Part shown: positions 17,226 through 44,126 of the stretch, one piece after another
How the letters are laid out: each line of letters starts with the position of its first letter
How positions within the stretch are numbered: position 1 is the first letter of the stretch
Source: a virus
Lineage: Duplodnaviria; Caudoviricetes
DNA length: 64,000 nucleotides
IMG/VR virus record: IMGVR_UViG_3300026177_000194
Location: 26,026-90,025 of that record
Direction: 5' to 3' (one strand)
The notes under the pieces: generated by a model
Told to the model about the DNA's origin: nothing
The model's database searches: none
What the model saw: only the letters and a program-made list of their open reading frames with translations
Translations under genes and position numbers: made by a program

Positions 17226-20200
17226 CTAAAACGTTAAAATTTCTTGTTTCTTTATTAGCAACGGTTCTAATAATAAATTATATCTGTCTGTCCAACTAAA
17301 ATCTAACATTGTTTTTACATCAATGATATAATAGTTAGGAACATATTCTACTTCTTCCGGAATCACAATTATATCTAACTTCACACCTTTTTTAAGAAAG
17401 TGTTTATCATAATTTAATCTGACTTCTTCTGGTGCTTTTTCTAAATCAATACCTTTCAGTTTAAATAAATATCCTCTTGATCCTACATCAAATACTTTAT
17501 ATTCTAAATCATTCCAAGTTAACATTCCTCTAACACCTTGACTTAAAACTTTATATTCTGAAATCTTTTTTGAAAATGAAACAGGTCTTCCAATTATCGT
17601 ATGACCTTCAGAAATTAATTTTGCAAATAATTTTTCTTTTTCTTTTACGAATTCTAAAATTGGGGGTAATGATAATTTTTCAGATTTTAAGATTAATTCC
17701 AATACTTCTTTTAAATATTCTTTCGTGGTATTTGCAAAATCAGATCTTTTAATTTCTAATCCCATACTTTTAATTTCATCAACAGGATTATTTTCTTTTG
17801 AAATAATATAATTTGAGTATCTTTTTTTAGCTAGATATAAACCTCTTCTAATTACTAATTCATTTTTTAATTCTAATCTATTTCTGTTTTCATTTACATT
17901 ATGTTTTGCTATAATTTTCTTAACAATATCGCCATTTAAAAAATTTTGAACTTCTTTATTTAAATCGTTTACAAACTTTAAAATATCTTCTTTTGATTTT
18001 TCCTTTGAAATCAATGAATTATAACATAAAAATACACTATCAGTATCTCCTGTAATTAAATGTTTAAAATTAACTCCCATATTATCTGTAAACATTTGTT
18101 GTTTGGTTATCGGTTTGTATTCAAATTTTTTATTATTCTTTTTTGACTCGATATAATTTTCTCCGGATATCATTACATTTTTAATTGCTTCTTGTCCACT
18201 TAATGTAATAGATCTTGCTGAGTCAACATTGAAAAATCTAAATACTTTATTACCCAAGGCACCATATAGCGAATTAGACAAAATTTTCATCACATTTTGC
18301 CTAGTATCATATAACTGTTCTTTATCTTTATCTTTTTTATTTAATGCATCAAACATCTTCTTTTTATAAATTTTTCTTGATCCTAACAACATTTCCAATA
18401 CTTCCGCATAGAATGATAATTCATTATCATGACTTTTAAAAAAACATCCATTAATTGTATGGGTTAAATTACTATCTTTTATTTTTTGTAATAATTGTTG
18501 TTTAGACACTGTAACTAATTTTTTCTCAAAAGTTGGATCTAAAATCACTTCAATTTGTTCTGGTAGGTTATCTGGATTATATGCTAAATCATATCCTAAT
18601 TGATGGTCTTTAAATTTCATTACAAATGTATTAACACCAATATTATATGTTAAAATAAGCGAGGGATACAAAGAAGTAAAATCAAAATCAACAACAAAAT
18701 CATGTATACCCACCACGGGGGATTGTACATAAGCACCCTCAAATCTTTCATCTTGATCGATAATTTCAGCATTTTTGGAAGCATAACCTTTCTCCTTTAG
18801 AAATGAAACTATAGTTGAATCTACTTGACCCAATACAGATTTTGATCCTTTAAATGTTGACTTACATATTCTTTTTAATTCATCTTGAAAAAATACATGC
18901 TTCAATTTATAATCTAATTCTTCTAATAAATCAACGTCATTAATATTATATAATATAGCTTTATTGATATCAGTTCTAAACATTTCTGAGAAATTAGATC
19001 CTTTATCTGTTTTACCTTTTTTCAATTCTAAATTTCCAATAAAGTCTAATGAATAACTTTCTCTTCCACCAAAAGTAAATTGTTTGTATAATTCTAACAT
19101 ATCAAGAAATACTATTCCTGCAGCATCTGGATAAAATTGATATTTATTATAATCTGCTTCTCCAAATTTTGACATTTTTGTACAATCAACTCTTATTTTT
19201 TTTGATCTGTTAATTATATATTGCATATCAAAATCATTTGAATACCAACCAGTAATAACGTCACATTCAGAATTTCTTACATCATTAAAAAATGTAGTCA
19301 ATAGAGTTGCTTCTGAATTGCAAATAACTATTTCTTTATTAGTTGTATCAATAAGTTGATTAGTAATTTTTAAAACTTTTGGATCTAAAACTAATGATTT
19401 TTTAATTCCATTGTAAGAATATCTAATAATTGCGATTGGATCATTAGCATCATGCGCTGAACTATTGACTCTAGTTTCTGAATATGTTTCAATATCTATA
19501 AACATAATATTTGAAGGGACTTTTGGTTCTTCTTCCTTCTTTAATAGATAATAATCCATGGCATGTTTTGTTGTAATCTTTATATCACCTTCATATGTTA
19601 TCTTGGGATTTAAAGAATATTTTTCTTTATAAGGAATTTTAACTTGATGTAATTCATCATATTTAACAACCTTTCTAGCTTTTGATTCATCATTTATTTG
19701 ATAACAAACGTAATCATCAGTTGTTTTATAATATTCTTTTTTATTATTTTTATCTCTGAAAATATACAAAACTTCATTTGTTTTACTTAAAAATTGAACA
19801 TCAATTAGTTTATAATTTGAAGTATAATATTTATCTGGAATCTTGTAATAAAATATTCCAGTTTTTGATGTAAGATTTTTTTGATTATTTTCCGTTGGAT
19901 TTAATCCAATTAATTCAGCAACTTTTTTCATATCATTTTCAAAAGTTGATTCTAATGTTTTGACTCTGTTTATATATGAAGGATGTAACATTATAAATAC
20001 ATCCCTATTATTCCATTTAAATTTTTCTCCTCTTATATTAGTTACTCCTGCGCCTTTTGGTAATAATCCAAATGCAGAAACTGGTGAAGCTCCCATTAAC
20101 ACAATTAAATCTGGATTGCATTCTTCAATAATTTTAAAACAATTTTCTTTACATCTTTCAATAACTTCTGGTTTTGGATTTCCTGTTGTACCATCCTCAT

Positions 20201-20462
20201 TTAATGTTTGACATAAAACAACATTCGTTAATAAATATTTTTCATTATCCAAACCATATTTTTCAAAATATTTTCTAAATAATTTTCCAGCTTTACCAAT
20301 TAATGGTCTTTCTTTTTCAATCTCGTCCTTACCTGGGTTCTCAGCTATAAAAATTATTTTAACCTCATTTAAATATGTAGCATTTGTTTCTAGAATACAA
20401 GATGGTTCTGAGAATAATGGACATCCTAAACAATCCGCAAAAGAGTTTTTAATACTAAACAA
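17226..20462 (-). CDS. Family B DNA polymerase with an N-terminal family-4 uracil-DNA glycosylase domain
   Basis: UDG: CLGC, AENPG, TNVVLC, ERCK, HPSY. Exonuclease: DIETY, FDMQY, YNINDV. Polymerase: DFTSLYPS, KILSNSLYG, GDTDS. Confidence 0.9.
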   Translation of the reverse strand: MFSIKNSFADCLGCPLFSEPSCILETNATYLNEVKIIFIAENPGKDEIEKERPLIGKAGKLFRKYFEKYGLDNEKYLLTNVVLCQTLNEDGTTGNPKPEVIERCKENCFKIIEECNPDLIVLMGASPVSAFGLLPKGAGVTNIRGEKFKWNNRDVFIMLHPSYINRVKTLESTFENDMKKVAELIGLNPTENNQKNLTSKTGIFYYKIPDKYYTSNYKLIDVQFLSKTNEVLYIFRDKNNKKEYYKTTDDYVCYQINDESKARKVVKYDELHQVKIPYKEKYSLNPKITYEGDIKITTKHAMDYYLLKKEEEPKVPSNIMFIDIETYSETRVNSSAHDANDPIAIIRYSYNGIKKSLVLDPKVLKITNQLIDTTNKEIVICNSEATLLTTFFNDVRNSECDVITGWYSNDFDMQYIINRSKKIRVDCTKMSKFGEADYNKYQFYPDAAGIVFLDMLELYKQFTFGGRESYSLDFIGNLELKKGKTDKGSNFSEMFRTDINKAILYNINDVDLLEELDYKLKHVFFQDELKRICKSTFKGSKSVLGQVDSTIVSFLKEKGYASKNAEIIDQDERFEGAYVQSPVVGIHDFVVDFDFTSLYPSLILTYNIGVNTFVMKFKDHQLGYDLAYNPDNLPEQIEVILDPTFEKKLVTVSKQQLLQKIKDSNLTHTINGCFFKSHDNELSFYAEVLEMLLGSRKIYKKKMFDALNKKDKDKEQLYDTRQNVMKILSNSLYGALGNKVFRFFNVDSARSITLSGQEAIKNVMISGENYIESKKNNKKFEYKPITKQQMFTDNMGVNFKHLITGDTDSVFLCYNSLISKEKSKEDILKFVNDLNKEVQNFLNGDIVKKIIAKHNVNENRNRLELKNELVIRRGLYLAKKRYSNYIISKENNPVDEIKSMGLEIKRSDFANTTKEYLKEVLELILKSEKLSLPPILEFVKEKEKLFAKLISEGHTIIGRPVSFSKKISEYKVLSQGVRGMLTWNDLEYKVFDVGSRGYLFKLKGIDLEKAPEEVRLNYDKHFLKKGVKLDIIVIPEEVEYVPNYYIIDVKTMLDFSWTDRYNLLLEPLLIKKQEILTF

Positions 20463-27357: not shown

Positions 27358-28770
27358 GTCAATTACTATGGTTCTGAAGAACCATAGCTTGATACGAAGA
27401 TTGATTTTTAAAGAATCCTTATTCGTAATGGACTATTGACAAGTCCTCTAGACAATTTTTCAAAAATTTCATTTTTGAAATTTTGCTTACTTAAAAACTT
27501 TTTCATGATATTACAAGCACCATTAATATCAGAATTAACTAAAATGCCTTTTTCACTTTGAAAAAGACCTCTTTTGATTCTTTTACCTTTATAGTTATCA
27601 TGTTTGTGTATTTCTTCATTATCTAAAAAAGAGCATTTGGAGGTATACGATTCTTCTTGATATTCAATATTTATAGAATTCAAAAAACATTTATTTCTAA
27701 TTTTAGTACTTAATTTAGAAAATGGTATTTGTACAAAGTTTTGGTTGTTAATTTTTCCCATTTTAGAATTTCTTTGAATATCTTTTAAATCACCAATTAC
27801 AATATTACCAATTTCATTAGAAATACAGTATGTAATAATTTTATTAGTTACTAAATTTAAATATTCATTAACTATATTATTTCTTTTTTCTACAACATTG
27901 TACATTCTATTTGAATATCTTTTGGAATTTGGTTCTTGTTTATCAAGAATACTTTTTAACCTTGCTATTTCTTTATTGAATCCTTGGTTTATTGATTTTA
28001 GTTTTTTACCATCTATTATAAAAGATGTCCCTTCAGAATCAATACATGAAGCAAGATTAGATACTCCTAAATCTATACTCAGAAACTTATCTGGATTTAA
28101 ATGTTCATTTTTTATTTCCTTCTTTTTATAAGTGATATGTATTGTAAAATATTTTGCTTTTTGTCTTGGAACTATTTTAATTTCTTTAATGGAATTTTTA
28201 TCAATGTGTTTTGGAAGGTCAAAGAATAAAAATCTTTTACTAATATTAAATTTTTTTTTAAACTCACCAGTCATTGAAAGCCGAATTTTATTATCTATAA
28301 CTTGAAACATTTGTTTTTGCCAAATTATTGGATAATAAGAGTTTTTGTCTAAATACCCTGGTAAATTAACTTTACCCAAATCAATTCCTTCTTTCTTCTT
28401 TTTAACTAGTTCAAAAAAAGATCTAAATGAAAAATCAACAGATCTTAACACGTTTTGACCAATTTGAACTAAAAATTTATAATTTTCATTATATTTACAA
28501 TCATGGTAATTAGAAAAATAATTTGTATACTTTCCTTCAAATATAAATTTTTGTCTCACATTATAGACGCCTACATTGTACATATTCTTGCATAATCTTG
28601 ATAATAATACAAGAATCTCAAATGATTCTTTATCAATGTTCCTAAGCTTGTTGACTTGTGTAAGATACATTTTTCCTCTTATAATAATTATAGATTTAAT
28701 ATTTGTTCTAAACAAATCAGAAGATCGGTTCAAATTCATCTAAGGGTCTAAAGACCACTTAGTTTTCTTT
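27358..28770 (-). mobile_element. Non-autonomous IS200/IS605 element (TnpB only)
   Basis: Left-end hairpin ctaag-ggtc/gacc-cttag near 28740-28762; right-end hairpin ctatggttct/agaaccatag ending TTGAC at 27358; removing it joins the two flanks in frame. Confidence 0.75.
27408..28670 (-). CDS. tnpB: TnpB (IS605 OrfB), rearranged-RuvC type
   Basis: SIDLG; IVIGDL (Gly in place of the canonical Glu); QEESYTSKC; NSDINGA; start MYLTQ with AGAGG. Confidence 0.85.
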   Translation of the reverse strand: MYLTQVNKLRNIDKESFEILVLLSRLCKNMYNVGVYNVRQKFIFEGKYTNYFSNYHDCKYNENYKFLVQIGQNVLRSVDFSFRSFFELVKKKKEGIDLGKVNLPGYLDKNSYYPIIWQKQMFQVIDNKIRLSMTGEFKKKFNISKRFLFFDLPKHIDKNSIKEIKIVPRQKAKYFTIHITYKKKEIKNEHLNPDKFLSIDLGVSNLASCIDSEGTSFIIDGKKLKSINQGFNKEIARLKSILDKQEPNSKRYSNRMYNVVEKRNNIVNEYLNLVTNKIITYCISNEIGNIVIGDLKDIQRNSKMGKINNQNFVQIPFSKLSTKIRNKCFLNSINIEYQEESYTSKCSFLDNEEIHKHDNYKGKRIKRGLFQSEKGILVNSDINGACNIMKKFLSKQNFKNEIFEKLSRGLVNSPLRIRIL

Positions 28771-29571: not shown

Positions 29572-31059
29572 GAAGAAAACTAAGAGGTCTTTAGACCCTT
29601 AGATGAATTCGTTAAAATTCTGTTACCATTGAATTTGATCTTCTTTTTAAAATTTTAACTTCTGTTAATTTTACAAGTTTCTTCATGCTATTGTTAAATA
29701 TATCCATAACAATAGCATATCCTGTTGACATCCTTCCCTTTACAAAACAAATAATATTATTACATTTAATTTTATCAAATTTTCTAACATTCATAATTTT
29801 CCCAGTTGGTATTTTCATTTGACTTCTAATTCCTTTTGTTTGTTGATAATCACCTTTTGATATATTTTTAATATGAAATCTATTATCTGGAATTACATCT
29901 AGAATTGAACAAGCATTATTTATTGGATTGTGTTCTAAATTTAAATTTTGTCTTTTTGATTTAACTAAAAAACCATAGGTTTCAATTGAATTTTCAATAA
30001 TAGAATTCTTTCTGATTATAGATAATTCAGTGTCAGGTTTTCCTTTATATACATTTTTATCAATATTTAAAATTATCTTTCCTCTATGATATTCAACATG
30101 ACAAGTTTTACAAAGTGTTATAATATTTTCTATATTATCTTCTCCTCCATGTTCTCTATGAATAACATGATGAGCATGAAGTTCATAATTTTTGGATTTT
30201 CCTTTACAATGTCTACATCTAAAATTATCTCTTTCAAAAACTTGTCTTTGTAAATTTAACCATTCTAAATCTTTAGGACCTTGATAATCTTTTTTTATAG
30301 AATTTTTAACAATAATCCAATTTAGATTTGGAAGTATTTTTTCAACCCTTCTAATTTCTCTTTTATGACTTTCTATTTTTGATGTTATTGTTGGATTAAA
30401 TTTTCTATTACTTTTTCTATTTAAAAATCTGCATTTTCTATATCTAGTTTTTCTATTTCTTCTGGTAATTCTATATGATTTTCTTCTTTTCATTTTCATT
30501 GAAATGTCATTTCTTAATTCTATTGTTGAACTATATACACACTTATTGTTTGCTCTTGATGAAATTCCAATTTTACTTGAACTTGGAACAATTGATGATT
30601 CAACTTTTTGTCTATAACCACTTGATCCATATAAAAGTTTAATTGTGAAAGGACAATTATTTACAACTTTTGCTTTCCCATCTTCTAATAATTTTCTTGC
30701 TTTTCTTGGTTTACATGGCATTAAAGGTTTACCATGTTTGTTTAGTACAAAAACTAACATATGAGTTTTTTCTCCTATTCCTGAGTTATGGCTGTTTTCA
30801 ATCTTTTACCAATTGAAAATTAGCAACTTCCTCTCGACAATGTTATTTTAGCTTACTCATTTAAAACGAGTCAATCTGGGTTGACTAAGAGTTTCCTCTT
30901 TGTTTACAGTGCCCACTTAGAGCCAGAAACTGAGGCGACATTTCTGGGTAAGATAACTAAAATAACGTAGGTAAAATTTCTTTTACCTTAGTCTGGTGAA
31001 CCAATTACTCTTCTAGATCACTCCAGAAGCCTTAACTCTTAAGAGTTAAGGTGATTCAC
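29572..31059 (-). mobile_element. Non-autonomous IS200/IS605-type IscB element
   Basis: Terminal hairpins at both ends (ctaagaggtc...cccttag; ccttaactct/agagttaagg...TTCAC); precise excision restores the host ORF. Confidence 0.8.
29612..30760 (-). CDS. iscB: IscB (PLMP-RuvC-bridge helix-HNH) with degenerate RuvC
   Basis: GKPLMPC, RRNRKTRYRKCRF, HHVIHREHGG..N..TLC..CH; the RuvC D/E/H/D positions read V/K/P/N. Confidence 0.85.
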   Translation of the reverse strand: MLVFVLNKHGKPLMPCKPRKARKLLEDGKAKVVNNCPFTIKLLYGSSGYRQKVESSIVPSSSKIGISSRANNKCVYSSTIELRNDISMKMKRRKSYRITRRNRKTRYRKCRFLNRKSNRKFNPTITSKIESHKREIRRVEKILPNLNWIIVKNSIKKDYQGPKDLEWLNLQRQVFERDNFRCRHCKGKSKNYELHAHHVIHREHGGEDNIENIITLCKTCHVEYHRGKIILNIDKNVYKGKPDTELSIIRKNSIIENSIETYGFLVKSKRQNLNLEHNPINNACSILDVIPDNRFHIKNISKGDYQQTKGIRSQMKIPTGKIMNVRKFDKIKCNNIICFVKGRMSTGYAIVMDIFNNSMKKLVKLTEVKILKRRSNSMVTEF

Positions 31060-31083
31060 TTTATCCATTGTTTTAAATTCCTT
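30775..31083 (-). ncRNA. IscB omega-RNA (HEARO-like) with 5' guide
   Basis: GTGAATCAC...GGTTCACCAGACTAAG...CTACGTT...CCAGAAATGTCGCCTCAGTTTCTGGCTCT...AACATTGTCGAG upstream of iscB; boundaries approximate. Confidence 0.75.
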
Positions 31084-31159
31084 TGGCGTCGGTAATTGGA
31101 TTTGAACCAATGTTGACCGAGTGTTAGGGACTCGCGCTAAACCTCTCAGCTATACCGAC
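31084..31159 (-). tRNA. tRNA with CUA anticodon (amber-suppressor type), atypical C33
   Basis: 76-nt cloverleaf: GTCGGTA/TACCGAC, D stem GCTG/TAGC, anticodon stem CGAGT/ACTCG with loop CC-CTA-AC, T arm ATTGG-TTCAAAT-CCAAT, encoded CCA. Confidence 0.8.
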
Positions 31160-39224: not shown

Positions 39225-39316
39225 GAAGATTCATCCTTTTTATTTTTGTTCATATTTTCAAAAATTTTATCTAAAAATTTTTCAGTATAGATGTAATTAC
39301 TACATATATTAATAAT

Positions 39317-39462
39317 TGAATGGAGGGAGAATGTTGATTTAGTTTTTCTTGCTGGGAGAATAGTTAATGATTATCCAGAAAATCATTGATGAAAAAACTT
39401 AAATCAAGAGGTCTCACCCCCGAGGGGGTTAATTCCAAGGTTCGAATCCTTGACTCCATTCA
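39317..39462 (+). ncRNA. tRNA-like structured RNA
   Basis: 9-bp terminal stem tgaatggag/ctccattca; T arm caagg-TTCGAAT-ccttg; acccc-cgag-ggggt arm; long ttgatttagttttt/aaaaaacttaaatcaa stem; follows the promoter motif. Confidence 0.6.
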
Positions 39463-39526
39463 TTTATTAGTATGTAACTGAGAAAAATAAAAACCAAACT
39501 CCATTGGTCTCAACTCAGTTTACATA

Positions 39527-40550: not shown

Positions 40551-40739
40551 ATGGACATGTCCCAAAAAACGGTAGCTAATTGGGTTGACTGGTGTCGGTA
40601 TATCAGAAAAATTCTTCCGGACCAGAAGTTTAATATCAAGTTTGCTGGTTATCAGTGGCAGCTTTATTGGTCTGGAGAAAGAGGTTCTGTCATGTGGGAT
40701 CTCGCCATCTATCTGATGGATAAATATGGATATGAATAG
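40551..40739 (+). CDS. Trp-rich hypothetical protein
   Basis: 62 aa; GGAGG SD. Confidence 0.6.
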   Translation: MDMSQKTVANWVDWCRYIRKILPDQKFNIKFAGYQWQLYWSGERGSVMWDLAIYLMDKYGYE

Positions 40740-40744
40740 GAGCT

Positions 40745-41839
40745 TTAAAGCTCCTTTTTTGCCGATTTTATTTTTTCTAAAATTTTTTGTCCAGTTTTTC
40801 CATCTCCATATAAATTTTGATTAAAATTATTATTATCAACTATAAATTTTTCAAATGCTTCAATTATTTTATTTTCATTTAATCCTGTTAATACATTCAT
40901 ATCTGTTGATAATAGTTCTATCCATTCTGTTTGATTTCTTAAAGTTATACATGGTGTTTTTGCAAAATATGCTTCTTTTTGTATCCCTCCAGAATCTGTC
41001 AAAATAATTTTAGCATTAATTTCTAATTCGATCATTTCTATATAAGATACTGGAGTAATAAAAATAATATTTTCAAAATCTTGAAATATAAAAGAATTTT
41101 TTTCTAAAAATATTTTGATTCTAGGGTGCATTGGAAAAACAAAACTATAATTATATTTTTTTGATAATTTATTTATAGTTAATAATATTGAATATACCTT
41201 TTTAAAATCATCAGTATTTTCTTGTCTATGTAAAGTTAATAAACAATATCTTTTTGGTTTTAATGCTAAAAGATTTAAAGGTGAATCTTCTTTATATGTT
41301 TGTTTATATTTTAAAAAAGAATCATACATTATATCTCCAACTAATTCTACATTTTTGGTAATTCCCTCTTGTCTTAGATTTTCAATCGCTACAGTAGTTG
41401 GACAAAATAAATAATCTGAAATATGATCTGTTAATTTTCTATTTATTTCTTCCGGCATCTTTTTATAAAAAGATCTTAAACCTGCTTCAATATGACAAAC
41501 AGGAATGTTTAATTTTGAAGATACCAATGCTCCTGCCAATGTCGAATTCGTATCACCATAAACTAAAACTAAATCAGGATTTTCAATTAATAAAATCTTT
41601 TCAATTTCTTCCATCATTCTTCCAGTCATTGCTCCATGTGATAAACTGGAAATGTTTAAATTATATTTTGGTTTTGGAATTTCTAATTCACTAAAGAAAA
41701 TATCAGACATCATTAAATCAAAATGTTGTCCGGTATGAATAATTATTTCTTCTATATCTGGATCTTTATTAATTAAATTAGATAATGCAGAAGCCTTAAT
41801 AAACTGAGGTCTTGCTCCCAGAATTGTTATAATTTTCAT
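40745..41839 (-). CDS. wecB: UDP-N-acetylglucosamine 2-epimerase (WecB/WbpI-like)
   Basis: GARPQFIK, HTGQH, GDTNST, HIEAGLRS, PEEINR, TDSGGIQKEA. Confidence 0.9.
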   Translation of the reverse strand: MKIITILGARPQFIKASALSNLINKDPDIEEIIIHTGQHFDLMMSDIFFSELEIPKPKYNLNISSLSHGAMTGRMMEEIEKILLIENPDLVLVYGDTNSTLAGALVSSKLNIPVCHIEAGLRSFYKKMPEEINRKLTDHISDYLFCPTTVAIENLRQEGITKNVELVGDIMYDSFLKYKQTYKEDSPLNLLALKPKRYCLLTLHRQENTDDFKKVYSILLTINKLSKKYNYSFVFPMHPRIKIFLEKNSFIFQDFENIIFITPVSYIEMIELEINAKIILTDSGGIQKEAYFAKTPCITLRNQTEWIELLSTDMNVLTGLNENKIIEAFEKFIVDNNNFNQNLYGDGKTGQKILEKIKSAKKEL

Positions 41840-42771
41840 AATTTCTCATACTCTCTGAACCAGTTAACAAATTTTTTAATACCATCTTCAAAGTCTACTT
41901 TTGGTTCAAACCCTAATATTTTTCTAGATTTAGTTAGATCAGGATTAGCTTCAACTATATCACCATCCTGCATCGGCTCATATTCTTTCTTAGGTTTTAT
42001 TCCTAAATAATTGGATATACAATCAACAGAATAATCGATATCTACTAATTTATCAGATCCTAAATTAAACTTTTCAATATTTCCATCTGAGGTCATTGTA
42101 GATATTATTCCAGGAATTAAATCATCAATGTATGTCCATGATCTTTTATTTTTTCCATAGTTAAAAACTTTAATTGGTTCATCTTTTAAAATTCCTTCTG
42201 TCCATTTCCATAGAGACAGATCTGGTCTTCCCCAAGGTCCATATACAGAAAAGAATCGCAATCCAACGGACTTTAATCCAAACATTTCAAAATATGAATC
42301 CGCTATAGATTCTGCTGAGATTTTAGTTGCACCATATAAACTAATTGGTTCTGATAAATTCATACTTTCATTCCATGGTATTTTATTCTTTCCATATACT
42401 GAAGCAGAGGAAGCATATATAAATCTTTCACATTCACATTTTTTTGCAAAATCAATTAATCTAAATGATCCAACAATATTTGAATTAATATATGATTCAG
42501 GATTTATTAAACTATATCTAACTCCAGCTTGTGCTGCTAAATGAATAATTAAATCAACTTTTGGTAATATTGAATATATCTTTTCATCTTCAATATTGCC
42601 ACTTAAAACATCAACATCATTTCTTATTAGTTTATATCTATCATATTTTATTTGAGGATCATAGTAATCATTAAAATTATCAATTCCAATAACTTCATGT
42701 CCTAATTCTAATAATTTTAAACAGGTATGAACTCCAATAAATCCACATGAACCACTAACTAAGATTTTCAT
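41836..42771 (-). CDS. NAD-dependent nucleotide-sugar epimerase (UDP-glucuronate 4-epimerase-like)
   Basis: GSCGFIG, LAAQAGVRYS, YASSASVYG, YGATK, RFFSVYGPWGRPD. Confidence 0.9.
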   Translation of the reverse strand: MKILVSGSCGFIGVHTCLKLLELGHEVIGIDNFNDYYDPQIKYDRYKLIRNDVDVLSGNIEDEKIYSILPKVDLIIHLAAQAGVRYSLINPESYINSNIVGSFRLIDFAKKCECERFIYASSASVYGKNKIPWNESMNLSEPISLYGATKISAESIADSYFEMFGLKSVGLRFFSVYGPWGRPDLSLWKWTEGILKDEPIKVFNYGKNKRSWTYIDDLIPGIISTMTSDGNIEKFNLGSDKLVDIDYSVDCISNYLGIKPKKEYEPMQDGDIVEANPDLTKSRKILGFEPKVDFEDGIKKFVNWFREYEKL

Positions 42772-42824
42772 ATTTTACTCCACATAATCCATTATAAAAA
42801 CTATTACTAAATATATTATTTTTT

Positions 42825-42960
42825 GAGAGAGGAGGTTTATTAAAGGTATAAGTTTTGATATGGCGCGAAACGTATCAAAATGAAAGCCTGCTGTTCGCGC
42901 AGTTCAAGGCTTCGTAGACAGATGCTTATTGCGCTGGATACGAAGCCTTACTCCTCTTTC
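42825..42960 (+). ncRNA. GC-rich structured RNA with a predicted pseudoknot
   Basis: 10-bp closing stem, two internal stems and a 7-bp loop-linker pairing; begins right after the promoter motif at 42805-42826. Confidence 0.65.
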
Positions 42961-42977
42961 ATTATTAATATTAGAGA

Positions 42978-44126
42978 TCAAGTAAATACTTGATCTCTAA
43001 TCTTCTTTAAAACATCAATAACATAATCAATTTCTTCTCGTTTCAATTTATAAAACATTGGTAATCTAATTGATCTATTATAAACATCTTTTGAAATTTC
43101 ACAATTATCATCTAGATTATTATAACAAGGCTGAATATAAGAACAATAGGTTCCAATCTGACATTGTATACCATTATCTTTTAATAATTGTATTAACTTA
43201 TTTCTATTTACAACTGGAGTAACTAAACAACTATATCCTTGAAAATTGTGAATATTTCCTTTCCCTTTTCTAGTATATGGTGCTTTAATATAATCAATTT
43301 CTTTTAACCTTTTGTTCCAATATCTAGCTAAAGCATTTTTCTTTTTAATAATTTTATCTAATTTTCTAAATTGTGCAATTCCAACTGCAGCAGCTAAATC
43401 ACTAAGTTTATAGTTAAATCCAATATTTTCAAATACCGGAATTTCAAATTCTTTACTATTTTCTCTACTCCAAGTATTCAATCCAAACGTTCCAAAACTT
43501 CTCGCTCTTAAAGCTATATCATCATCATTAGTTACTAGAAGTCCACCTTCTCCAACCCCAACACCTTTGGTTGCGTGCATTGAAAAGCATCCTATTTTTC
43601 CAATGGTTCCACAATATTGTCCTTTATATTTTGATCCCATAGCACAAGCGGCATCTTCAATTACCGGAATATTTTTTTTGTTTGCAATCTTCATAATTTT
43701 ATCCATATCTGCAGCTTGACCAAAAGTATGAACTACTATAATAGCTTTTGTCTTCTTTTTATTTATTTTCTTCTTTAAATCTTTATAATCCATATTATAA
43801 GTTTTTGGTTCTATATCAACAAAAACTGGTTTCATTCCACAATACTTTACTGAGTGTCCTGTTGCTGGATATGTATAATCCGCAACTAATATTTCCGGTT
43901 CTTCATCCTCTCTAGTTATAATTCCCAATCCAATTAAAGCTAAATGTAATGCAGTAGTACATGAAGAACAACATATAACATGTTTAACTCCCAGATATTC
44001 AGAAACCATTTTTTCTAATTCAATATTCTTTGGACCTTTTGTTAACCAACCAGTTTCTAATACTTTTTTAATTTCAATTAATTCATTTTTATCAATCCAT
44101 AATCTGCTCAATGGTACTTTTCTCAT
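42978..44126 (-). CDS. DegT/DnrJ/EryC1/StrS sugar aminotransferase (WbpE-like)
   Basis: SSCTTALHLAL, VHTFG, IEDAACA, FSMHATK..GVGEGG, GFNYKLSD. Confidence 0.9.
   Translation of the reverse strand: MRKVPLSRLWIDKNELIEIKKVLETGWLTKGPKNIELEKMVSEYLGVKHVICCSSCTTALHLALIGLGIITREDEEPEILVADYTYPATGHSVKYCGMKPVFVDIEPKTYNMDYKDLKKKINKKKTKAIIVVHTFGQAADMDKIMKIANKKNIPVIEDAACAMGSKYKGQYCGTIGKIGCFSMHATKGVGVGEGGLLVTNDDDIALRARSFGTFGLNTWSRENSKEFEIPVFENIGFNYKLSDLAAAVGIAQFRKLDKIIKKKNALARYWNKRLKEIDYIKAPYTRKGKGNIHNFQGYSCLVTPVVNRNKLIQLLKDNGIQCQIGTYCSYIQPCYNNLDDNCEISKDVYNRSIRLPMFYKLKREEIDYVIDVLKKIRDQVFT

Follow-up and report, generated by a model that had tools for sequence, protein, structure and literature searches.

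A structured non-coding RNA as the predicted cargo of an exchangeable early cassette in an uncultured jumbo phage

In phage genomes, functions for counter-defence and host take-over gather in accessory hot spots, and to our knowledge the cargo described at such sites so far is nearly all protein. In T4-type phages, recombination between the conserved promoter and stem-loop ends of PeSL cassettes shuffles the cargo that lies between them (Arbiol et al. 2010, PMC2839356). Short promoter-to-terminator units that lack a coding sequence have been found by transcriptomics as intergenic small RNAs of phages 201phi2-1 and phiKZ (PMC11512511). Phage RNAs that sequester a host defence protein are represented by the Racr repeats, which serve as RNA decoys against CRISPR (PMC10651486), and by phage-encoded viral single-guide RNAs (bioRxiv 10.64898/2026.06.01.729453). 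Here we describe a locus that is reminiscent of each of these systems, and at which a small structured RNA lies between two protein-coding genes of an uncultured jumbo phage.

The window that we analysed is a 64,000-nucleotide stretch, with a mean G+C content of 27%, of IMG/VR record IMGVR_UViG_3300026177_000194 (here G000; 90,025 bases, completeness rating 19%). Nearly all genes in the window are on the minus strand. The encoded proteins include a T4-like portal, a family B DNA polymerase, a DnaB helicase, ThyX, TnpB, and IscB with a HEARO RNA. An earlier note on this DNA, made by a model from the sequence, had placed an RNA between two sugar-pathway genes and on the strand opposite to them; we find that the RNA is indeed antisense between the genes for a DegT aminotransferase and an NAD-dependent epimerase (Table 1). 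We propose that it is the product of a stand-alone non-coding RNA gene of about 136 nt (about 185 nt with the terminator hairpin), borne on a promoter-RNA-terminator cassette whose insertion point would lie precisely after the DegT stop codon and before the ribosome site of the epimerase. We consider it very probable that the plus strand carries here a genuine accessory gene for a non-coding RNA. The fuller reading, in which an exchangeable early cassette specifies a kissing-loop four-way junction, is the one that we favour on balance.

The locus shares with the PeSL cassettes and morons of T4-type and other phages the organization of a small unit with a strong 5′ early promoter (here a predicted one) and a 3′ terminator stem-loop and the location in a variable region, and it is likewise gained, lost or replaced among close relatives. 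It differs from them in its promoter, which resembles those read by the virion polymerases of AR9 and phiKZ whereas that of PeSL is sigma-70-like, and in its cargo, which is a structured RNA whereas that of PeSL is an orphan, protein-coding ORF. The small RNAs of 201phi2-1 and phiKZ are also short non-coding units in jumbo phages that have their own RNA polymerases; they have no sequence in common with the RNA described here, whose four-way junction and kissing loop are known from sequence alone.

We note several features of the neighbouring genes. The nearest named homologues of the window DegT protein beyond the phage clade are 52-55% identical to it (approximate values) and are annotated as archaeal, the annotations being Methanophagales, ANME-2, Methanosarcinales and Thermoplasmatales. 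TnpB (OrfB_IS605 and Cas12f1-like TNB domains) and IscB (RRXRR and HNH domains), the latter with a full HEARO RNA, are encoded at window positions 27408-28739 and 29612-31159, both on the minus strand, and adjoin a tRNA whose anticodon is CUA; some sister phages have a TnpB gene directly upstream of the DegT gene (L118, L121 and L122, positions 1-1050). The family B DNA polymerase (window 17226-20462, minus strand) carries an N-terminal domain of the uracil-DNA glycosylase superfamily (PF03167, E 3.8e-20).

Table 1 Features of the RNA cassette in the window, their counterparts in the homologous RNA of L002, the states of the DegT/epimerase site in relatives, and polymerase genes of relatives. 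Locations without a prefix are window positions.
Feature	Location	Strand	Description	L002 counterpart
NAD-dependent epimerase/dehydratase gene, flank	41836-42771	-	Pfam PF01370, E 3.6e-47	
Cassette-borne epimerase leader	42772-42804	-	ribosome site and conserved TTTTATAATG block	
Phage early-type promoter motif	42805-42826	+	core ATATATTATTTTTTGA at 42811-42826; predicted +1 at G42825 or A42826	
P1, whole stem		+	11 bp	9 bp
P1, 5′ strand	42825-42834	+	pairs with 42951-42960; holds SD-like GGAGG	
J1/2	42835-42843	+	A/U-rich single strand, 9 nt	10 nt, A/U-rich
P2 arm	42844-42889	+	46 nt; 4-bp outer stem, 4x4 internal loop (AUAA/GAAA), 11-bp inner stem, 8-nt loop L2	47 nt
L2-L3 kissing interaction (predicted)	42863-42900	+	6-7 bp; 42863/4-42869 with 42894-42899/900	
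J2/3		+	single G	single G
P3 mini-hairpin	42891-42902	+	3 bp (CUG/CAG); 6-nt loop L3 (UUCGCG) at 42894-42899	5 bp, 7-nt loop
J3/4		+	3 nt	3 nt
P4 long hairpin	42906-42949	+	44 nt; 11-bp perfect stem at 42906-16/42939-49 and distal 3+3 bp	21 nt
J4/1		+	1 nt	1 nt
P1, 3′ strand	42951-42960	+	CUCCUCUUUC; pairs with 42825-42834	
Intrinsic terminator	42970-43010	+	14-bp hairpin at 42970-43001, then T-rich tail; 1 found vs 0.1 expected	
DegT/DnrJ/EryC1 aminotransferase gene, flank	42978-44126	-	Pfam PF01041, E 3.3e-99	
Site filled by family A RNA	window, L002			
Site filled by family B RNA			about 210 nt, at least 4 variants; 16 base pairs with double changes	
Family B members (alignment A4)	L014:3650-3905, L096:1905-2150, L109:2372-2610, L117:2354-2576, L119:1397-1640	-		
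Site filled by family C, a third RNA	L100-102; L100:2349-2578	-	about 170 nt, promoter-driven (predicted)	
Site filled by non-coding insert	L113-116		321 nt, without promoter motif	
Site filled by small ORF in phage G002	L003:5170-5370	-	homologue of window ORF 40551-40739 (+)	
Empty sites			only 14 nt between DegT stop and epimerase start	
RNA polymerase beta-like genes, G001 (two loci)	G001:C1:130412-131686 and 168843-170135			
RNA polymerase beta-like gene, G002	G002:C1:145730-147220			

On the plus strand the RNA has a predicted folding energy of -63.8 kcal/mol (z -8.4), which none of 200 shuffled sequences equalled, against -44.8 kcal/mol for the minus strand. The plus-strand fold contains seven G-U pairs, each of which would be an A-C mismatch if read from the other strand, vs two G-U pairs in the minus-strand fold. 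The RNA is predicted to form a four-way junction of helices P1-P4, in which all of the stems listed in the earlier note are present at the positions it gave. Its closing stem P1 has the 10 bp described there, one of them a G-U pair (11 bp if U42824-A42961 is counted); the 9-bp stem that it called P2 is contained in an 11-bp inner stem (42852-62/42871-81), beyond which there is an outer stem (42844-47/42886-89); and the 11-bp stem that it called P3 is retained here under the name P4, because the short hairpin with the TTCGCG loop takes the name P3. The loop-loop pseudoknot of the note is also upheld: L2 (42863-42870) has the sequence GCGCGAAA, within which GCGCGAA (42863-69) is exactly complementary to TTCGCGC (42894-42900), and each of these two heptamers occurs once in the 90-kb record. 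Pairing of the P2 and P3 loops over 6-7 bp would lock the RNA into a compact shape, and we infer that this pairing takes place within one molecule. The G+C content of the RNA region, 46-50% vs the window mean of 27%, agrees with the impression of the note that the RNA is more GC-rich than its surroundings.

No ORF in the RNA has a ribosome site and none is shared by the window with L002, the record that carries its homologue (see below), in keeping with the absence of a convincing ORF reported in the earlier note; for these reasons we rejected a small peptide gene. When the 4227 models of Rfam 15 were searched over the window, the sole gathering-score matches were to HEARO and tRNA, both away from the RNA, and at E values up to 10 the matches were at chance level (17.6 bits or less), with none spanning the RNA body. 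At gathering and permissive thresholds alike, L002, L014 and five other loci also gave no family. The opinion of the note that this is not a known ribozyme or riboswitch agrees with these Rfam results. A BLAST search with the region as query, over 50,697 phage records, found no match. The note had concluded that the RNA was a novel phage small RNA, such as a protein decoy, an antitoxin mimic or a ribozyme. What stands of this is a structured plus-strand RNA behind a predicted promoter and outside the Rfam families; the decoy, antitoxin mimic and ribozyme are not among the supported points.

Several other candidate identities were rejected. A retron msr-msd RNA was rejected because G000 and its two relatives G001 and G002 contain no RVT_1 and Rfam gave no msr match, and a Y RNA (YrlA) because the same three records contain no TROVE (Ro) gene. 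A tRNA-like RNA was rejected because ARAGORN found no tRNA or tmRNA at the RNA; the P3 loop, UUCGCG in the window and UUCGCAC in L002, has no equivalent of A58 of the canonical T-loop (U54...A58). The P2 stem appears to resemble a Cas9 repeat:anti-repeat stem, and the 5′ end the msr of retron Ec86; neither likeness is present in L002.

The promoter motif, whose wider consensus is CTACATATATTAAT(T/A)TTTGA, precedes every RNA cassette at the DegT/epimerase site in conserved form. With at most one mismatch, ATATATTAATTNTTGA occurs at 26 sites in G000, G001 and G002 (5 in G000, and 12 and 9 in the two relatives) vs none in a reversed control. All but one of these sites are on one strand per record (25 of 26), opposite to most genes, and a ribosome site and small ORF are found 25-45 nt after most of them. 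We predict that the motif serves the phage as a genuine promoter, specific to one strand, and is not a chance AT-rich string. It is similar to the early promoters of AR9, which have the consensus AAATATATATTAT-(6N)-G+1 and are read by a virion-packaged multisubunit polymerase (PMC5312081), and of phiKZ, which have the sequence TATATTAC (PMC7058600). The spacing rule of AR9 would put the start of transcription at G42825 or A42826, the first base of P1. The earlier note had likewise placed +1 at the closing stem, a position that fits this rule by analogy.

RNA polymerase beta-like genes of the phage multisubunit type are present in both G001 and G002, and by analogy the two loci of G001 fit the pair of virion and non-virion polymerases of AR9/phiKZ-like phages. 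No RNA polymerase gene was seen in G000, a 19%-complete fragment that is too incomplete to show one. By the same analogy, the RNA is likely to be an early transcript made by the phage's own polymerase; the early virion-type enzyme would transcribe it right after infection, and expression would be early.

At the other end of the RNA, the terminator hairpin starts nine bases past P1. The sequence that forms the 3′ arm of this hairpin encodes, on the opposite strand, the final residues of DegT, and the 5′ arm repeats it in inverted form; the RNA cassettes of L002 and other relatives likewise end in terminators made of a hairpin and a T-run. In the epimerase leader, on the minus strand, the block TTCATTATAAAA is conserved at filled sites and missing at empty sites, and the TTTTATAATG block may be a minus-strand -10 element.

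A homologue of the RNA is found in L002, a record of 268,812 bases whose DegT protein is 87% identical to that of the window. At the same place between the DegT and epimerase genes, L002 has a G+C-rich RNA with the same promoter motif before it and a strong terminator after it. The two RNAs are only about 45% identical, against 87% for the flanking DegT proteins, and their MAFFT alignment has 65 invariant columns of 147, the loops being misaligned by MAFFT; their architectures correspond in 15 of 15 segments (Table 1). The loop-loop pair of L002 is GUGCGAA/UUCGCAC, in which a C-G pair has become U-A through a double change at the same position as in the window; the duplex energies are -10.4 and -8.9 kcal/mol for the window and L002, respectively. 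At the third pair of the outer P2 stem, a double change has replaced G-C with U-A. The covariation of this family, which we call family A, amounts to two double changes across two distinct members, too few sequences for a covariation statistic. A covariance model made from a single sequence, that of the window RNA, and run with filters off aligned the L002 RNA from end to end and ranked it first in that locus (10.5 bits, E 0.44, which is not significant alone), in an alignment that also holds 20 junk rows; with default filters the model missed L002. The strand of the RNA in L002 is assigned from the orientation of the promoter and terminator, because the two strands fold nearly alike (-37.6 vs -35.4).

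Between the window and L002 the sequences of J1/2, the P2 stem and the junction strands differ, and the conserved letters concentrate in L2, L3 and J2/3. Pattern scans of IMG/VR for the core of family A gave, among the matches listed, L002 and chance matches in G+C-rich DNA, and a pattern scan of the three records G000-G002 detected a single copy in G000, a single copy in G001 and no copy in G002. Among DegT relatives in public assemblies there is one further family A copy, which comes from a different sample and has the sequence of the window (100% identity); samples that contain this phage are from digesters or sludge, JGI 3300027914 being an example. A third distinct family A sequence was not found among close DegT relatives in these assemblies. 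We conclude from these comparisons that the L002 RNA is a covarying homologue of the window RNA.

The states of the site were compiled among relatives with DegT proteins at least 68% identical. These relatives carry at the same position RNAs of other families, a non-coding insert, a small ORF or nothing (Table 1), and many family B, family C and empty sites are seen among DegT relatives in public assemblies. In family B, which has no Rfam match, a 5′ hairpin loop (GUUGAAC-like) is joined by a covarying 7-bp contact to an internal loop on the 3′ side, in the terminator stem. The segment by which filled sites differ from empty ones runs exactly from the stop codon of DegT to the ribosome site of the epimerase, with no duplication or terminal repeats at the junctions. 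An IS200/605-type miniature element was rejected, the filled/empty junctions having neither terminal features nor target duplication. Across the RNA cassettes the promoter end is conserved, the terminator-side end is partly common to L002 and family B, and the interior is replaced. In G002 a homologue of a window ORF fills the DegT/epimerase slot, and therefore protein and RNA cargo are interchangeable at this site. As judged from the sequences of these relatives, the site is a hot spot where an exchangeable cassette carries the RNA as its cargo, and exchange presumably takes place by recombination at the conserved ends, in analogy to PeSL. We note that the window copy of the ORF encodes 62 aa and belongs to no known family, and that G002 has a family B-like RNA behind the same promoter at another position (G002:C1:81599, L248).

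One slot behind the same early promoter is thus occupied in sister phages by at least three unrelated folded RNAs, two of which keep long-range loop-loop pairings through matching mutations. The locus amounts to a natural swap experiment, in which the same phage backbone carries different RNAs, and the small size of the RNA would allow its structure and binding to be studied directly. Should these RNAs prove to be expressed and active, they would represent an unexplored layer of early RNA effectors in jumbo phages.

As to what the RNA does, we suggest tentatively that it may act via its shape and not by base-pairing to a message. A possible role, which we put forward tentatively and with a prior taken from context, is that of a shape-specific decoy or sponge whose target would be a protein of the host or of the phage, during take-over or counter-defence. 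We favour this role because the RNA is near-fully paired and has neither a conserved long single strand nor a complementary target in the 90-kb record, because its shape is preserved in the helix lengths of the junction and the loop-loop lock, and because it turns over between sister phages in the way that is seen at accessory and anti-defence loci.

Most characterized phage small RNAs base-pair in trans, and the RNA could in principle do the same, with J1/2 or a loop pairing to a host or phage message and altering its translation or stability. Its own promoter, its intrinsic terminator with a U-tail and the A/U-rich single strand at J1/2 would suit this mode of action. Nearly all of its nucleotides are paired, however, the J1/2 sequence differs between the window and L002, and in the 90-kb phage record there is no complementary site of at least 12 nt beyond chance; we therefore consider base-pairing unlikely. 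We give about as little credence to the idea that the RNA is functionless, a by-product of a cassette that insulates the sugar operon transcriptionally by means of a terminator and a new epimerase promoter and ribosome site. The cassette does replace the epimerase ribosome site and bring a conserved TATAAT-like block on the minus strand, and empty sites indicate that the operon works without it. An insulator would, however, need neither a 136-nt four-way junction nor a loop-loop complement kept by double change at about 45% overall identity, and the same slot holds at least two unrelated, internally covarying RNAs, family B with its 16 doubly changed pairs among them.

The purine, lysine and SAM-I aptamers are built in a similar way, with several helices that meet at a junction and are locked by a contact between loops; SAM-I has a four-way junction with a pseudoknot, and in all of these a Watson-Crick contact between loops or between loop and junction compacts the junction, as it would here. 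This likeness, together with the terminator directly after the RNA and the gathering of conserved letters in L2, L3 and J2/3, raises the possibility of a ligand-sensing aptamer, either a small-molecule sponge or a riboswitch-like element whose folding would set whether polymerase stops at the terminator or reads through antisense into the DegT operon. We regard this as improbable: riboswitches are 5′ leaders that control a gene on the same strand, whereas here the RNA is followed by a terminator and a convergent gene, with no plus-strand gene downstream; no Rfam riboswitch model matched even at E 10; and no alternative antiterminator pairing is evident. Two fully complementary hairpin loops of 6-7 nt on neighbouring arms of very unequal length could also pair between molecules, L2 of one with L3 of the next, to give dimers or rings comparable to phi29 prohead RNA or the ROOL and GOLLD cages, and full pairing of loops of this size is a typical feature of kissing complexes between molecules. 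The prohead RNA is comparable in size and also has a junction of several helices and a pair of hairpin loops complementary to one another, but its loops are of 4 nt; here none of the Rfam models Phage_pRNA, ROOL and GOLLD matched, and the genome is that of a jumbo phage, whose packaging system is not phi29-like because its portal is T4-like. Self-assembly is accordingly a very improbable role. We think it least probable that the RNA is a new self-cleaving or otherwise catalytic RNA. Small pseudoknotted phage RNAs are often ribozymes, and the size of this one and its combination of a junction with a tertiary contact are compatible with catalysis, but no ribozyme family matched in Rfam, the junction strands are short and differ between the window and L002, and a stand-alone unit with its own promoter and terminator has no obvious need for processing.

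For the protein decoy or sponge that we favour, the nearest functional models are the Racr repeats and viral single-guide RNAs, which are likewise stand-alone structured phage RNAs with a promoter and a terminator in accessory loci. These have a free 5′ guide, whereas the 5′ end of the RNA described here is paired in P1 in both the window and L002. Rfam, which covers catalogued repeats only, gave no CRISPR-DR or tracrRNA match, and the P2 stem varies in sequence. By these sequence features the RNA is outside the Racr and viral single-guide RNA families. A sponge for CsrA was rejected, the GGA motifs differing between the window and L002 when compared by eye. That uncultured AR9/phiKZ-like jumbo phages carry swappable RNA effectors fired from the early promoter of the virion polymerase, with the present RNA as one class, a kissing-loop-locked four-way junction that would serve in the first few minutes after infection as a decoy or sponge for a host target of defence or take-over, is an extrapolation that we regard as less probable still. 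If phages do hold such a repertoire of decoys, it would be the RNA counterpart of anti-defence proteins, swapped likewise between phages.

Other short non-coding units with the same type of promoter are seen elsewhere in these genomes. A second promoter-driven non-coding RNA is predicted at window positions 39304-39470 on the plus strand, with the RNA itself at 39317-39462 (z -4.0). It has a 9-bp terminal stem beside a canonical T arm (CAAGG-UUCGAAU-CCUUG), belongs to no Rfam family, gives a weak match to a tmRNA end (E 0.07), and is conserved in G002, where its homologue (L245) is located at G002:C1:81999-82150. In G001 several short RNAs are found behind the same promoter, one of them about 85 nt long with a terminator (L252, G001:C1:31050-31472, minus strand), and a tiny unit near position 254461 of G001 (L260) consists of a hairpin, T-arm-like and with the sequence GGUUCGAGUCC, and a T-run after it.
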